Of a stretch of 64,000 bases of DNA, positions 35,486-61,016 are shown piece after piece (position 1 is the stretch's first letter; each line of letters starts with the position of its first letter). The DNA is from an uncultured delta proteobacterium (GTDB taxonomy: Bacteria > Myxococcota_A > UBA9160 > SMWR01). The position numbers were made by a program, and so were the translations under genes. The stretch is taken from contig CAWHTE010000002.1 in NCBI GenBank assembly GCA_963832165.1, forward strand, positions 384,001 through 448,000, written 5' to 3'. Under the pieces are notes generated by a model. That model searched no databases, was not told the DNA's origin, and saw only the letters and a program-made list of their open reading frames with translations.

Positions 35486-36643
35486 GTGCGACTACGCATC
35501 GCAACGCTGAATGTCTGGGCGGTGCCGCTGCTCTCGGAACGGATCGGCACGCGCATGCGCGAGATCGGGCACCGGCTCGGCGCACTCGAGCTCGACGCGA
35601 TCGCGTTCCAGGAGGTCTGGACGCCGACCGCGCGTCGCAGACTGGTCGAGGCCGGGCGAAGGGCCGGGCTCGCGCACGCGTGGCACCGCAAGCGGTTCGT
35701 GATCGGGAGCGGGCTGCTCGTGCTGTCGCGCCTGCCGATCGACGATGCGGACTTCGACCGCTTCGCGCTGCGCGCGCGACCGACCCACGTGGACGAGCTC
35801 CTGGGTGGAAAGGGCTTCGCGCGAATCGCACTGCGCACGCCCGTGGGCCGGCTCACACTCGTCGATACCCACCTGCACGCGGGCACGGCGAGCGACGATG
35901 AGCTCGGCGTGCGCGCACACCGCACCGCCCAGATCGTTCAGCTCGCAGGAGAGATGCGCGACCTCTCGGAGCCGGTGCTCGTGGTCGGCGACCTGAACCA
36001 CCAGGAGAGCGAGCCGGAATACCAGGTGCTGCGCGGGCTCACGGCGCTGCGCGATCTCGCTGCCGAGACCGGGAGCCGCGCAGCCACGGCGCTTCAGAGC
36101 AACCCCTATCGCGCCGGCAGCCCGAAGCCGGATCGGCGCATCGACTATGTGCTCGCGCGCGACGGCGATGCGCTCGGCGTGCGGCCGGTATCGGTCGCGC
36201 GCGTATTCGACGAGCCGTTCGCGATCGACGGGCGCGCGGCCGCGTGCTCGGACCACGCCGGCGTGCTCGCGGAGCTCGAGATCGCGCCGGTCGCGCGCAC
36301 GGGTCGCGCGCTCGCGGACGTCGCGGCGCTCGATCTCGCGTCGCGCCTGCTCGGCGAGGGCGCGAACACTGCGCGTCGCGATCGCCGGACCAACCGCGCA
36401 GAGGCTGGGATCGGGCTCGCGGCTGCTGCGCTCGCAGTGACGGGCAGCCGCACGTCGATGTTCGGCCGCCGCGCCTTCCTGCGCGGTGCACTTTCACTCG
36501 GCGCGCTCGCGGCACTCGCGCCGAGTGTCGAGTCCTCGCTCTCGTCGGAGTGGCTCGCGCGCAACGAGATCGACGCGTTCGGCGACGCGGTCACGCTGCT
36601 CGCGCGCATGCGCGCCGATCACCGCTCCAGCTCGAACCGGTAG
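35486..36643 (+). CDS. EEP-superfamily phosphodiesterase resembling neutral sphingomyelinase (SMPD2/Isc1 type) with C-terminal hydrophobic helices
   Basis: TLNVW, FQEVW, IGSGL, GKG, THLHA, HRTAQ, GDLN, RIDYV, SDH. Confidence 0.8.
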   Translation: MRLRIATLNVWAVPLLSERIGTRMREIGHRLGALELDAIAFQEVWTPTARRRLVEAGRRAGLAHAWHRKRFVIGSGLLVLSRLPIDDADFDRFALRARPTHVDELLGGKGFARIALRTPVGRLTLVDTHLHAGTASDDELGVRAHRTAQIVQLAGEMRDLSEPVLVVGDLNHQESEPEYQVLRGLTALRDLAAETGSRAATALQSNPYRAGSPKPDRRIDYVLARDGDALGVRPVSVARVFDEPFAIDGRAAACSDHAGVLAELEIAPVARTGRALADVAALDLASRLLGEGANTARRDRRTNRAEAGIGLAAAALAVTGSRTSMFGRRAFLRGALSLGALAALAPSVESSLSSEWLARNEIDAFGDAVTLLARMRADHRSSSNR

Positions 36644-37245
36644 GTCGCGCGGACGTCGACCTGCTCGACGGGCCGGCCGTCCTGGATCGCGGGCTGGTAC
36701 TTCCAGGTCGTCACGGCGCGGATCGTCGCGGCGTCCCAGATCCGCGGCGGCTCGGAGGCCAGGATCGCGACGTCCTTCACGCTGCCGTCCACGGCCACGG
36801 TGAACGAGAACGTGACCCAGCCCTCGATCCCGCGGTCGCGGGCCTGATGGGGATAGTCGGGCTCGATGCGGACCTGGGGCACGGGTGCGCGGTCGGAGCC
36901 GCCGGCGTGTGAGATCTTCGAGCCTTCGCCCGGCGGCACGCCCAGCTCGCCCGGGCCGAAGGTCTGCGGCGCGAGACCCTTGGGATCGTGGCCCGGCCGG
37001 ACCACGTTCGGCTCGATCACGATCGTCGACACTTCCGACAGCTGCGGCTTCGGGATCGGCGGCGGCACGCGGATGATGTGGATCGGCTCGGTCTCGGGGA
37101 TGTGGGTCGTGAAGTCGATGCCGGGCACGACCGGGATGACGTCGAAGTTCACGACCGGAGAGACCAACACTCCCAGGAACCAGAACAGCGTGATCGTCGT
37201 GAGAACGGACAGGAAGAACGAGACCGATAACCGGATGCTCGCCAT
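36619..37245 (-). CDS. TonB family energy transducer
   Basis: N-terminal TM helix, Pro-rich linker, YP..ARDRGIEGWV...F.V..DGSV...WKYQP. Confidence 0.88.
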   Translation of the reverse strand: MASIRLSVSFFLSVLTTITLFWFLGVLVSPVVNFDVIPVVPGIDFTTHIPETEPIHIIRVPPPIPKPQLSEVSTIVIEPNVVRPGHDPKGLAPQTFGPGELGVPPGEGSKISHAGGSDRAPVPQVRIEPDYPHQARDRGIEGWVTFSFTVAVDGSVKDVAILASEPPRIWDAATIRAVTTWKYQPAIQDGRPVEQVDVRATYRFELER

Positions 37246-56671: not shown

Positions 56672-57049
56672 CTATTCGACGCGCTCGGCGGTCTGTGCGT
56701 GGATGCCCCAGATTTCGTCGTCCAGCGACGCGTGATCCCACTTGCCGGCGACGCGCACCTTGCGGCCGACCTCGGGCGGTTTGCCGTCGTTGAGCTTGCG
56801 CAGCATGTGCTCAGGAACGCGGACCAGCACCGAGCCGGTGTCATCCTCGAGCGTCACGACGTAGCGGGAGCCGGAACCCACCGCGACGTGGGTGATGCGA
56901 CCCTGGACCATCACGTAGTCGCCCGACTCGGCCTTCTCGTTCACCTCCGCGATCGGGCGGACCCCGGACGCCATCGACCCCTTCCAGGCGGAAGCCGGAG
57001 CGGCCAGCGTGAAGCTCGCAATGGCGAGGACGATCACTGCGCTGCGCAT
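56672..57049 (-). CDS. Secreted OB-fold protein (YgiW/YdeI-like)
   Basis: Signal peptide ending ASA; V.VQGRI...LEDDTGSV.V...V.V.G. Confidence 0.75.
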   Translation of the reverse strand: MRSAVIVLAIASFTLAAPASAWKGSMASGVRPIAEVNEKAESGDYVMVQGRITHVAVGSGSRYVVTLEDDTGSVLVRVPEHMLRKLNDGKPPEVGRKVRVAGKWDHASLDDEIWGIHAQTAERVE

Positions 57050-57075
57050 GGAACCCCCCTTTGCGCGGGATTCAT

Positions 57076-57103
57076 GGATCGGTGCCGCGCACGCGGAGCT
57101 TGA
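57076..57103 (-). promoter_or_regulatory. Sigma28-like promoter P10
   Basis: TCAAG-N15-ACCGATCC, 26 nt before ATG 57049. Confidence 0.62.
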
Positions 57104-57125
57104 GGACGTGTGCGACGCTTCGCGC

Positions 57126-57710
57126 ATGCGAACGAGCCTCCACATAGCGCTCGCGGCCACTGCAGCGGTGGTTCTCGGTCTCGGCTCGGGCGCGTGGGCC
57201 GTGCGTGCGGGACTCTCGGCGGGCAACGTCGCGAATGGACCCTGGCGGACGAGTCTCACCACCGGGAGCGCCGAGGCGGACCTCTACACACGGGCCCGTG
57301 TTGCGGTCGGCGCACTGCTGGCGCTCTCGCCCGCAGAGACGATCTACTGGAACGCCGACCGCGACTCCTCGGGCGCGCTGCTCGAGGCGCGCTGCGACTA
57401 CGAGGTCGCGGGCGACGAGCTGCCCGCGCGCTGGTGGAGCATCACAGCCTACGGCTCGGACGATTTCCTGATCCCGAACGAGCCCGGGCGCTATTCCTTC
57501 AGCCAGACGACACTCGCGCGCGAGCCGCGTGGCGCCTGGGCGATCGAGGTTTCGACGGAAGCGAAGCCGCGCAACTGGCTGCCGTCGGGCCGGTCGGGCG
57601 ACGCTGGCCGCTTCGCCCTCACCCTGCGTCTCTACAACCCGGAGCGCGCGATGCGCGAGCAGCCGGGATCGGCAGAGCTTCCGCAGATCGAGCGGGGTGA
57701 ATGCCGGTGA
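57126..57710 (+). CDS. DUF1214 domain protein
   Basis: ADLYTRA.VA, ETIY, DSSG..L...C.Y, PARWWSITAY, NWLP, LRLYNP. Confidence 0.85.
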   Translation: MRTSLHIALAATAAVVLGLGSGAWAVRAGLSAGNVANGPWRTSLTTGSAEADLYTRARVAVGALLALSPAETIYWNADRDSSGALLEARCDYEVAGDELPARWWSITAYGSDDFLIPNEPGRYSFSQTTLAREPRGAWAIEVSTEAKPRNWLPSGRSGDAGRFALTLRLYNPERAMREQPGSAELPQIERGECR

Positions 57711-58237
57711 AGCGCGCTCTCGCCACGACGCTCGCCGTGCTGGGCTGCGCGGCCGCGCTCCACGTCGCGGTAGTCGCGACTCTGCCCTACGCGATCATGG
57801 GCGTCGCGATGCGCCGGCTCGGCGCCGCGGGCGGCGAGAACGTCTGGATGCACCCTCCGCTTGCGACGGCGGCTTCGCGCGCGATCGTGCGCCCGAGCCC
57901 GGACCTCGCCTACTCGAGTCTGATCTTCGACGTCGGCGAGCGGCCGCTCCGGGTGCGCGTGCCGATCACGCTGCCCTACACCTCCCTTTCGGGCTTTGCG
58001 CGCAACACCGACAACTTCTTCGCCGTGAACGACCAGACGGCGGGTGCGCCCGAGATCGACGTCGTCCTGGTCGGCCCGAGCACTCCGCGCGCAGGGCTCG
58101 AAGGCCTGCGTGTCGTCACTTCGCCGAGCGACCGCGGCATCCTGCTCGTGCGCCGCGTCGTCCCCGACGCGGCCGACTTCCCCGCAATCGACTCCGCCCG
58201 CCGCGTCACCGAAGTCCGGAGTGGTTCGATTCGCTAG
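57701..58237 (+). CDS. DUF1254 domain protein (start 57701 or GTG 57707)
   Basis: IVRPSPDLAYS...FDV..GPL-like motif, Y.SLS, DNFF.VND; coupled to the DUF1214 gene. Confidence 0.8.
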   Translation: MPVKRALATTLAVLGCAAALHVAVVATLPYAIMGVAMRRLGAAGGENVWMHPPLATAASRAIVRPSPDLAYSSLIFDVGERPLRVRVPITLPYTSLSGFARNTDNFFAVNDQTAGAPEIDVVLVGPSTPRAGLEGLRVVTSPSDRGILLVRRVVPDAADFPAIDSARRVTEVRSGSIR

Positions 58238-58345
58238 CTCGGCATGCCCGGGGGGAGCCGCTGGAGCCGAGAATCCGTCAGCGGAGGATCCGCTCGCCGG
58301 CGCGGCGTGGTAGGTTGAGACAGCGCTGCAGTTCTGGGGTTCGTT

Positions 58346-59917
58346 CTGACGCGTCTCGTCCTACCGACGCTGTGCCTTCTCGCCGCCTTGTCGGCGGCGG
58401 AGCCACGCCAGGCCGGGGCCGAGGAGAACGAGCCGGCGCCGGCGCGGGTCGAGCCCGCGCCCGCGGCCCTCGAGCTCGCGCTTCGCGAGCTCCCGCCCGG
58501 CATCCGCGCCGCGGCGCCCGAGGCACCGTCGCCGCTCACAGTCGAGTACACGGTCGACGCAGCGCTCGAGGCCCAGGTCCGCGAGATCCTGACGCGCAGC
58601 CGCCTCCATCTGGCCCAGGTGATCGTGATGGATCCGGCGACTGGCGAGGTCTTCGCATACGTCGCGACCGATCCGCAGGCCTTTCCGGCAACGCGCGCCT
58701 ACCCGACGGCGTCGCTCATGAAGGTCGTGACCGCGGCCGCGGTGCTGCGCGATGCGCCCAGCGCGGCGCGACGGAGCTGCCGCTACCGCGGGAGCCCCTA
58801 CCAGGTCAACGCCGCGCAGCTCAAGGCACCGCGCACGGGAGGTCGGCTCGAGAGCTTCGATGAGGCGCTCGCGATCTCGAACAACCAGTGCTTCGCGCGC
58901 CTCGCGGCCCACGATGTCGGACGTGCGGCGCTGTTCGCGGAGATCGAGCGCGTGGGCCTGCTCGCATCTCCCGCTCCCGGGCATCCGGGTGGGAGCATCG
59001 AGCCGGTCGGGGACGCGCTCGCGCTGGGCCGCCTCGGGTCGGGGCTCGCGGGCTCGTTCCTCTCGCCGCTGGCGGCCGCGCGGCTCGCCGCGGCGCTTGC
59101 GCGTGGCGAGCTGGTCGAGCCGCACTGGATCGCGCGTGTGCGCGACGCCGCGGGCGAGCTCGTCGCGGTGCCGGACGTCGCCCCGCCCCGGCGCATCTGG
59201 GAGCCGGACGTCGCCGCCTCACTGCGCCGCTCGCTGCGCGGCGTCACCGAGCGCGGCACCGCGCGCCGCGCCTTTCAGAACAAACGCGGCGAGCCGCTGC
59301 TCGGCGACGTCGCGGTCGCGGGCAAGACCGGAACATTGAGCGGCAAGGATCCGAAAGGGCTCTACCAGTGGTTCGTCGGCGTCGCTCCCGCGGAGGAGCC
59401 GCGCATCGCGATCGCCGCACTCGTGGTGCGCGACCGCAAAGGATCACATCGCCGCGGCGGCGCGGGGACCAACGCCTCGCAGGTCGCCGCGCAGACCCTG
59501 CGAGGGATCTTCTGCGACGGCGCCGGCTGCGCCGCCGATCGCGTCGAGCCGCTCTACGCGCGCGCCAACGCGCGCCGCGCCGAGTCTGTGGCGGAGCTCG
59601 AGGCGCAGCGCGCCGCGCGCGAGCGTGCCCGCATCGCCGCCGAGCGCGTCGTGCCGGCGCGTCTGCTCGAGGAGTCCGACATCGAGTTCCCGCGCTCGCT
59701 GCGGCGCCGGAAGGTCGAGGGGGAGATCGTGCTCGCCGTCTCGCTCGCGCCGAGCGGCGACGTCGCGAACGTCCGCGTCGACGCGTCGGACCTGCCGGCG
59801 CGATTCGGCAATCACGTCTCCGAAGTGGTGCGCGACTGGAAGTTCGCCCCGTCGACCCGCGGCGGCGAGCCGATCGCGAGCGAGGTTCGGCTGCGGATCC
59901 CGGTTCAGATCCGCTAG
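58346..59917 (+). CDS. Penicillin-binding transpeptidase domain fused to C-terminal TonB domain; start uncertain (CTG 58346 or TTG 58388)
   Basis: SLMK (SxxK), SNN (SxN), KTG; C-terminal FPRSLRRRKVEGEIVL...SGDV...WKFAP. Confidence 0.85.
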   Translation: MTRLVLPTLCLLAALSAAEPRQAGAEENEPAPARVEPAPAALELALRELPPGIRAAAPEAPSPLTVEYTVDAALEAQVREILTRSRLHLAQVIVMDPATGEVFAYVATDPQAFPATRAYPTASLMKVVTAAAVLRDAPSAARRSCRYRGSPYQVNAAQLKAPRTGGRLESFDEALAISNNQCFARLAAHDVGRAALFAEIERVGLLASPAPGHPGGSIEPVGDALALGRLGSGLAGSFLSPLAAARLAAALARGELVEPHWIARVRDAAGELVAVPDVAPPRRIWEPDVAASLRRSLRGVTERGTARRAFQNKRGEPLLGDVAVAGKTGTLSGKDPKGLYQWFVGVAPAEEPRIAIAALVVRDRKGSHRRGGAGTNASQVAAQTLRGIFCDGAGCAADRVEPLYARANARRAESVAELEAQRAARERARIAAERVVPARLLEESDIEFPRSLRRRKVEGEIVLAVSLAPSGDVANVRVDASDLPARFGNHVSEVVRDWKFAPSTRGGEPIASEVRLRIPVQIR

Positions 59918-59990
59918 CGGCCGTGGCCAACCGCTCGCGCTACTTCGCGTTCGGCAACGCCCGCTGCTCGGGGCAGATGGAGGGTGCAGC

Positions 59991-61016
59991 ATGCGAGTTC
60001 TGAACATCCACGGCGTCGATGACGTCCGGCTGGATCCGGTCGATCCGCCGCGCCCGGGAAGCAAGGACGTCGTGGTGAGGGTGAAGGCGTGCGGAATCTG
60101 CGGCAGCGACCTCACCTACATCAAGATCGGTGGAATTCTCCGTCCGCCCGGCGGCACGACGCCGATCGGCCACGAGGCCGCGGGCGAAGTGATCGCCGTC
60201 GGAGACGACGTGAGCGGCGTTGCCGTGGGGCAGCGGGTCGTCATCAACCCGATGATGACGCCGAGCCATATCGGCAGTGGCGGCCCGGAGGGTGCCTTCA
60301 CCGAGGAGCTTCTGGTTCGCGACGCGCGCGTCGGCGACAGCCTGCTTCCGATCCCGGAGGATCTGCCCTACGAGATCGCGGCGCTGACTGAGCCGCTCGC
60401 CGTCGCGCTGCACGGCGTCAACCGCGCCCAGGCGAAGCCGGGCGACAAGGTGGTCGTGTTCGGATGCGGTCCGATCGGTCTCGGCATGGTGCTGTGGCTG
60501 GTGGACCGCGGCGTGACCGACGTGGTCGCGCTCGACCTCGCGCCGGAACGGCTGGCGCGCGCTGCGGCGCTCGGCGCACGAGCGGTGTTGGATCCCACGC
60601 GCGAAGACCTTCGCGCGCGCCTGCTCGAGCTGCACGGCTCGGCGCGTATTTTCAACCGCGAAGCGGTGGGTACGGATGCCTTCATCGACGCAGCCGGTGC
60701 GCCCAACATCCTGTCCGACGTGGTGAGGATGGCGAAGTACCAATCGCGCATGGTGGTGACGGCGGCCTACATGAAGCCGGTGCCGCTCGATCTCGGCGCG
60801 ATGCTGACGACCGAGATGATGATCACCACCGCGGTCGGCTATCCCGACGAAATGCCGGACGTGATCGCGGCCCTGCCCCGGCTGCGCGAGAAGCTCAGTA
60901 CGCTGATCAGCCATCGCTTCCCGTTCGACGAGGTCATCGAGGCGCTCGGCGTCGCCGGTACGCCGGCTTCGGCGAAAGTGATGATCGAGTTCCCGGCGAT
61001 CACCTCGCCGAATTGA
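59991..61016 (+). CDS. Zinc-binding medium-chain dehydrogenase
   Basis: CGICGSD, GHE, EP, FGCGPIG; four-Cys structural-zinc lobe absent. Confidence 0.9.
   Translation: MRVLNIHGVDDVRLDPVDPPRPGSKDVVVRVKACGICGSDLTYIKIGGILRPPGGTTPIGHEAAGEVIAVGDDVSGVAVGQRVVINPMMTPSHIGSGGPEGAFTEELLVRDARVGDSLLPIPEDLPYEIAALTEPLAVALHGVNRAQAKPGDKVVVFGCGPIGLGMVLWLVDRGVTDVVALDLAPERLARAAALGARAVLDPTREDLRARLLELHGSARIFNREAVGTDAFIDAAGAPNILSDVVRMAKYQSRMVVTAAYMKPVPLDLGAMLTTEMMITTAVGYPDEMPDVIAALPRLREKLSTLISHRFPFDEVIEALGVAGTPASAKVMIEFPAITSPN

Follow-up and report, generated by a model that had tools for sequence, protein, structure and literature searches.

The window analyzed here, a stretch of 64,000 nucleotides from an uncultured delta proteobacterium, contains at 58319–59917 on the forward strand, with 59917 as the end of the stop codon, an open reading frame in which a PBP-type transpeptidase is fused to a TonB C-terminal domain (TonB-C). 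The first-pass annotation had the gene begin at 58316; however, positions 58316–58318 are a TGA stop codon just 5' of the frame, which opens at 58319. The first common start codon is the TTG at 58388, use of which would remove the signal peptide described below; because close homologs begin at a position matching the CTG at 58346, this CTG is the likely start, and the fusion gene then spans 58346–59917 (+) and encodes 523 aa. Residue numbers are counted from 58319. GC content is 67–77% across the 20 kb flanking the gene, with no step at the gene itself, and neither a sigma-70 promoter nor a terminator was matched within 57900–60200. As originally proposed, the fusion is contained in a single open reading frame, in which both Pfam domains exceed the cut-off. 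The junction was checked for a stop or break with a contig of a related strain from another sequencing run (record 7 of X1), which covers 59406–59724 with zero gaps; in the sequencing runs searched, at most 12% of the sequence words were present, and RNA contigs give no evidence of expression. An assembly artifact or read-through was rejected as the source of the fusion.

Hydropathy heuristics predict a cleavable Sec signal peptide (58346–58423, +) with a short hydrophobic core and an A-x-A end. Only about 60 residues separate this signal from a pedestal-less transpeptidase domain of class B type (58535–59530, +; PF00905 at residues 101–386, E 4e-23, over cut-off), for which the top Foldseek match is M. 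tuberculosis PBPA (3lo7, E 2e-18), and VIA comparisons with class B transpeptidase domains gave Z scores of about 32–36 (for 4r0q, Z 36.3, rmsd 3.3, 322 aligned residues). We found 294 homologs of the fusion, and the counts given here use the best 120 of these 294. The catalytic motifs SxxK (S132-L-M-K135, 58712–58723, +), SxN (S187-N-N189, followed by an invariant C191, 58877–58891, +), and KTG (K336-T-G338, 59324–59332, +) had been described as intact, and all seven motif residues are indeed present in 120 of the 120 listed homologs. C154 (58778–58780, +) and C191 are likewise invariant in 120 of 120; absent from the earlier annotation, they form a possible second cysteine pair whose disulfide we infer. 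The CDGAGC pair that had been noted at the end of the transpeptidase domain (C-x4-C, C399/C404, 59513–59530, +) is real and is kept in 119 of the 120 listed homologs, but it is not specific to the fusion: a loose form of the pattern occurs in 66 of 66 unfused paralogs, and a fusion-specific role for these cysteines was rejected.

The domain is followed by a charged linker of 37 residues (59534–59644, +) whose helical nature, postulated from the sequence, is reproduced at residues 406–442 (pLDDT about 95) in an AlphaFold2 model built from a 100-row alignment (pLDDT 92.5, pTM 0.83); among 115 homologs, the linker between the cysteine pair and TonB-C has a length of 38–71 residues. The tail (59651–59914, +), which the first-pass annotation had offered for testing as a possible failure to be TonB-C, is TonB-C by sequence, with both PF03544 (residues 456–527, E 4e-11) and TIGR01352 over cut-off. 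It also matches PDB TonB entries by sequence, has the strand and helix order of TonB-C in the model, and belongs by identity and tree to the subfamily of a TtpBCD-type operon. Pfam and structure comparison found neither a glycosyltransferase nor a pedestal domain, and no PBP_dimer match, which agrees with the initial description; Pfam also found no M56 or other signaling domain. In its fold and three motifs the enzyme resembles PBPA-type class B PBPs (M. tuberculosis PBPA 3lo7, Atopobium 4r0q, and P. aeruginosa PBP3; Foldseek E 2e-18, VIA Z 33–36, about 20–24% identity), whereas it differs from them in having no pedestal, an apparent cleaved signal in place of the anchor, and a C-terminal helix plus TonB-C. 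With the TonB energy transducer it shares the C-terminal domain; the N-terminal motor-binding helix and elongated Pro-rich spacer of TonB are absent, their place being taken by a segment that resembles a signal, the globular enzyme domain, and a helix. The second motif of class D beta-lactamases is of the SxV type; in contrast, SNN is found in 120 of the 120 listed homologs and M56 is absent, so that the features of a class D beta-lactamase or a BlaR1 sensor are not seen here, the class D beta-lactamase match being weak (E 0.02) and an OXA match lying far below cut-off.

Rather than as two separate genes, the case that had been named as contrary to a fusion, the listed relatives are mostly encoded as one chain: the TonB-C part aligns within a single chain in 115 of the best 120 homologs, and a search for the same architecture, proposed at the outset, found Transpeptidase and TonB_C together in 113 of them. 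All 115 listed homologs that have the domain (115 of 115) retain the TonB-C core residues P458, G468, W507, and F509, across about 50% identity. Source titles of the homologs are mostly Myxococcota, Myxococcales, or Deltaproteobacteria, with some Spirochaetales, which are likely mislabeled assemblies. Among nine pairs for which dN/dS was computed, the closest gave 0.09 for the fused tail and 0.12 for the transpeptidase, the low tail value indicating purifying selection on TonB-C; three pairs from the window gene's own clade gave tail values of 0.45–0.66, with synonymous sites near saturation. At the level of sequence, the fusion is thus confirmed as real and conserved. Across a sample of 151 genomes from the class, the PBP family was found in 126 and the full fusion in 13; an unfused copy is also present in 10 of these 13, and in G031, G043, and G078 the fused copy was found alone. 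Among these, G031 (L027) is a single-contig genome, 96% complete, that has a fused copy without an unfused paralog. A patchy distribution of this kind and the faster change of the tail in the window gene's clade would fit a neutral by-product, in which a duplicated PBP landed behind the end of a duplicated tonB and the tail is a tolerated relic. We regard this as extremely improbable given the invariant core residues, the low dN/dS of the closest pair, and the occurrence of the same tail on a second enzyme, and the conservation largely refutes it.

In a FastTree phylogeny of 84 rows, drawn from its midpoint, the 18 rows of fused transpeptidases make up a single clade (SH 99), and the unfused paralog in the window genome is 53% identical to the fusion. 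This paralog (G000:C7:864812–866352) belongs to an unfused family of short transpeptidases from Myxococcota and relatives, the domain of which is about 50% identical to that of the fusion and has the same motifs and cysteines, whereas the family differs in its Arg-rich tail and longer membrane segment, in having no TonB-C, and in its neighborhood, with NifU and/or PilZ genes adjoining 57 of 61 unfused loci. In our phylum sample, distant unfused relatives (about 28–39%) were found in other classes, none of which matched over the TonB-C tail, and Atlas clusters from Bdellovibrionota and Thermodesulfobacteriota contain further distant unfused members (about 30–39%). These results show that the fused enzyme arose once, as a duplicate of a membrane-anchored PBP without a pedestal. 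Unfused copies have the Arg-rich tail, an uncharged run with a median of 20 residues (n = 65), and an RG motif in 58 of 65, whereas fused copies have a median run of 15 residues (n = 17), an RG motif in 1 of 17, and small residues at the end. N-termini were usable in 101 homologs, of which 88 show a hydrophobic core of 12 residues, four a strong one of 19 residues, and two a lipobox-like string. Signal and anchor were told apart by hydropathy heuristics, and on these the data suggest that fused copies exchanged the membrane anchor for a cleaved signal peptide. The unfused anchored PBP (L043:8812–10353, G000:C7) is itself near-universal in the class at a fixed NifU/PilZ locus, and we found no description of it.

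The tail belongs to the TonB of an operon that encodes DUF3450, a long ExbB (which we take to be TtpC), ExbB, two copies of ExbD, TonB, a TPR protein (presumably TtpD), and a transporter bearing CarboxypepD_reg. The window tail is 32–43% identical to eight TonBs from such operons, compared with 21–28% for the two best other TonBs of its own genome. Conversely, all 13 of the longer proteins found with the tail of one operon TonB are transpeptidase fusions (48–68% identity). A 90-row tree of tails, built from few columns, groups the operon TonBs and both fusion types (the second is described below) apart from eight of nine outgroup domains, the ninth being a long branch. The fusion is thereby shown to carry a C-terminal domain that comes from the TonB encoded in a TtpBCD-type operon, whose own TonB keeps the motor-binding helix and Pro-rich spacer. 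In Vibrio, the TonB2/TonB3 TtpBCD systems have DUF3450 (TtpB), a long ExbB, ExbB, ExbD, TonB, and a last gene after tonB, as in the donor operon, which differs in its two ExbD genes and adjoining CarboxypepD_reg-bearing transporter; the accessible text on the Vibrio systems mentions no accessory that joins an enzyme to TonB-C (PMC6957404).

To relate the fusion to this operon, we used 80 loci, of which 16 encode full-length fused copies, 61 unfused copies, and three copies cut by contig ends, which were left out. To read the neighborhoods, six-frame translations were compared by BLAST with 19 reference proteins, a set that did not include SEDS genes. Of the 16 full-length fused loci, 9 have core ton or transporter genes at a distance of up to 6 kb, compared with 0 of the 61 unfused loci; two of the remaining fused loci have only the downstream companions of the transporter, and five have no operon gene within 6 kb. 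At L052, L056, and L059, the fusion occupies the interval from tonB to the TPR gene, and its start is overlapped by the tonB stop codon. Among 25 metagenome loci, the fusion again lies between tonB and the TPR gene at L180 and L184, between the two exbD genes at L169, and directly after the transporter at L183. The cognate TonB is present in 9 of the 13 fusion genomes, which include kin and are therefore not independent, and was not found in the other four; matches to its TonB-C subfamily occur in 19 of 138 genomes without the fusion, 14 of which were checked as operon tonB. Neither fusion type is present in 18 of the 28 genomes holding this TonB subfamily, so the fusion is dispensable, and its linkage to the operon could partly reflect its place of birth. 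Other genes occur within these operons: at L052:7806–8738, a gene for a peptidase M28 separates the fusion from the TPR gene, and a repeat-rich frame of 373 residues lies between the two exbD genes at L056:4031–5160, with similar gaps at L158 and L186.

In the window genome, the cognate transporter lies on the same contig (C2:327612–331004), about 111 kb from the fusion, and the cognate motor genes were not found in this genome, which is 89% complete. In G005, the operon occupies a gap of 6.3 kb between the CHAD gene and the transporter; in the window genome this gap measures 0.7 kb, which reads as a deletion of the motor genes rather than an assembly gap. At L126:5080–5613 (G000:C2:327079–327612), the motor genes from DUF3450 to TPR are absent between CHAD and the transporter. 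The loss of the motor here, together with the absence of both fusions from 18 of 28 subfamily genomes, marks the fusion as an optional accessory. A fusion that persists where its cognate motor has been lost also fits a different view, in which TonB-C is a general wall-binding or dimerizing module that replaces the anchor, and the enzyme works across the sacculus, independently of transport. The apparent loss of the membrane anchor is in keeping with this, the three genomes with only a fused copy fit a general wall role, and dimeric TonB-C might bind peptidoglycan according to the portion of PMC9022066 available. However, such a tether leaves the retention of the fusion in four different operon positions unexplained and does not say why two types of enzyme use one TonB subfamily, and the wall contact measured for a Ton system is that of ExbD, as far as the accessible text of 10.1101/2023.08.11.552980 goes; we consider it unlikely.

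The transporter lies inside a phosphate cluster with pstSCAB, phoU, ppk, sixA, and CHAD; within the genus, the Ttp/transporter locus is linked to phosphate genes at L126, L034, L035, and L036, suggesting that it may be under phosphate-starvation control. The transporter kept in the window genome has a diverged TonB-box region (VEEIVV compared with LEAFVV-like sequences in seven relatives), and the gene that follows the transporter is similar to beta-helix proteins that are widespread in Verrucomicrobiota. A separate Ton cluster of the DUF3450 type lies on C3, and the genome has nine plug domains overall. The neighbors of the fusion in the window are unrelated to it and recur beside no other fused copy. 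Two adjacent small genes, DUF1214 and DUF1254, lie just upstream (57009–58237, +); these and an alcohol dehydrogenase are absent beside other fused copies and were ruled out as partners. Elsewhere in the window (36619–37245, −) is a stand-alone tonB without exbBD neighbors, 28% identical to the tail of the fusion.

The slot between tonB and the TPR gene is filled at L033:6089–6925 (−) by a different protein of 279 residues, which consists of a signal-like segment, a small domain, an acidic and Pro-rich linker, and a TonB-C of the same subfamily. Of its 79 matches, 44 (44 clusters) cover at least 80% of its length, and all 44 of these retain R77, S96-Q-H98, D105, and H141. Pfam matches to M15 are weak and below cut-off; however, the protein has the S-x-H-x(6)-D motif, the distal His ligands, the conserved Arg, and the M15 fold, at moderate Z scores of 7–8. 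Its model aligns to 1lbu with a VIA Z of 8.2 (rmsd 3.5, 99 aligned residues) and also matches VanXY 4muq, LysB4, and Ply500 (fold matches 6akv and 2vo9); the fold search for TonB-C was run on the homologous tail of this protein. The fold and metal-ligand motif of the M15 zinc DD-peptidases (1lbu, VanXY 4muq, LysB4, and Ply500) are thus shared by this sister fusion and not by the transpeptidase fusion, and two unrelated D-amino-acid peptidase folds carry the tail of one TonB subfamily. The M15 fusion was found in 1 of the 151 class genomes, its operon context comes from one locus, and none of the 25 loci in the metagenome scan has an M15 domain. It may have arisen from tonB directly or by an enzyme swap on the transpeptidase fusion, and the tail trees fit either route.

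A tail without the TonB membrane helix would bind unproductively, and the fusion could in principle be a regulator or decoy, in which TonB-C, having no motor, rivals TonB for access to the box and so holds back uptake while the PBP domain senses the state of the wall or beta-lactams. Sensors of the M56/BlaR-like kind can end in either a TonB_C or a transpeptidase domain, according to the available part of 10.64898/2026.04.08.717257. Against this, the fusion contains no M56 or other signaling domain, both passenger types retain a complete catalytic set, and the translational coupling to tonB in three loci suits an accessory as much as an inhibitor, so that we find a regulatory role very unlikely.

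The reading that we favor, and to which we assign about an even chance, is that the fusion is a putative periplasmic enzyme that edits the wall and is targeted to a site of Ton transport. It would be an exported, probably soluble serine DD-peptidase (a transpeptidase or a carboxy/endopeptidase) that uses TonB-C as an address tag, its anchor having been replaced by the cleaved signal peptide. The tail would dock at the transport site, in the simplest case by pairing a strand with the transporter's exposed TonB box, and alternatively on a periplasmic Ttp subunit; binding of TonB-C to exposed TonB boxes is described in the accessible text of PMC9022066. The helical stalk would hold the active site in the wall layer below the docking point, where local editing of cross-links by the enzyme could make room for the bulky Ttp/TonB machine or its cargo to reach across the wall. 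Without the membrane helix of TonB, the fusion cannot itself transmit motor force, and having no pedestal it probably acts without a SEDS polymerase, which makes hydrolysis or re-cross-linking of existing wall as likely as synthesis. The first-pass annotation had suggested that wall remodeling could be targeted to outer-membrane transporter or motor sites. This idea gains genomic support in the tail from the TonB of one operon, the linkage at 9 of 16 loci, and the second wall peptidase with the same tail, but nothing supports a link to gliding or to a Tol motor. We counted against the favored reading the 111 kb between fusion and transporter, the missing motor genes, the four fusion genomes in which no cognate TonB was found, the 5 of 16 unlinked loci, the faster change of TonB-C in the window gene's clade, and the majority of operons without a fusion.

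A docked enzyme might instead act as a gatekeeper that processes imports, such as D-Ala-D-Ala peptides from foreign walls or beta-lactam-like compounds, and not the cell's own wall. Both passenger folds are known to act on the D-amino-acid ends of peptides, an enzyme docked on an exposed TonB box would sit at the exit while transport proceeds, and the absence of a pedestal for a SEDS polymerase is compatible with such a role. We judge it decidedly unlikely: the transporter lies in a phosphate-uptake cluster in several genomes, which does not point to muropeptide cargo, and the second motif is SxN, the fold ranks with class B PBPs, and the class D beta-lactamase match is weak, as noted above.

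Extending the favored reading of a wall-editing enzyme at a Ton site, we propose, more tentatively and with somewhat less than even confidence, that in this class TonB-C freed from its motor is a reusable address tag and that TtpBCD-type operons recruit interchangeable wall peptidases, either a serine transpeptidase or an M15 zinc peptidase, that would dock on the transporter and open or re-seal the wall where TonB must cross it. The occurrence of the same tail on a second, unrelated wall enzyme hints that cells remodel the wall at outer-membrane gates. Dedicated wall-remodeling accessories are known for secretion machines and flagella, and if the proposal is true, the fusions would be such an accessory of Ton transport. 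How the Ton machine passes through the wall is still unclear, and in the portions of the literature consulted the wall figures as the structure to which ExbD is anchored. The finding of one TonB tail on two unrelated wall-peptidase folds, both seen inside a single type of operon, suggests that certain Ton systems come with local wall editing of their own. Each of the two fusion proteins is small and probably soluble and can be tested in vitro.

The fusion is built from known parts, but its architecture is apparently undescribed: our literature search, which did not extend to subscription journals and supplements, found no description of a transpeptidase-TonB-C or M15-TonB-C protein. The nearest cases, the M56-TonB_C and CarbopepD_reg-TonB_C proteins of Bacteroides, likewise place TonB-C on a non-TonB domain; M56, however, is a membrane signaling protease, whereas the passengers found here are wall-peptidase folds with a predicted cleaved signal, and the accessible text of the same source states that TonB proteins with extra domains are not functionally characterized (PMC10350073). 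A loose precedent is SjdR, a short TonB-like protein that affects septal peptidoglycan in Anabaena, as described in the available part of PMC8597729. The architecture is already visible in the automatic Pfam annotation of public proteins, and many homologs of the fusion are named "TonB family protein" by their sources, a label that hides enzymes. A profile search with the TonB-C alignment against 1.84 billion representatives was dominated by multi-TonB-C repeats, and no new passenger was found among the nine short matches inspected. Many of the proteins retrieved (P0200–P0346) have 4–9 tandem TonB-C domains, and the three that were scanned contain TonB-C families only.
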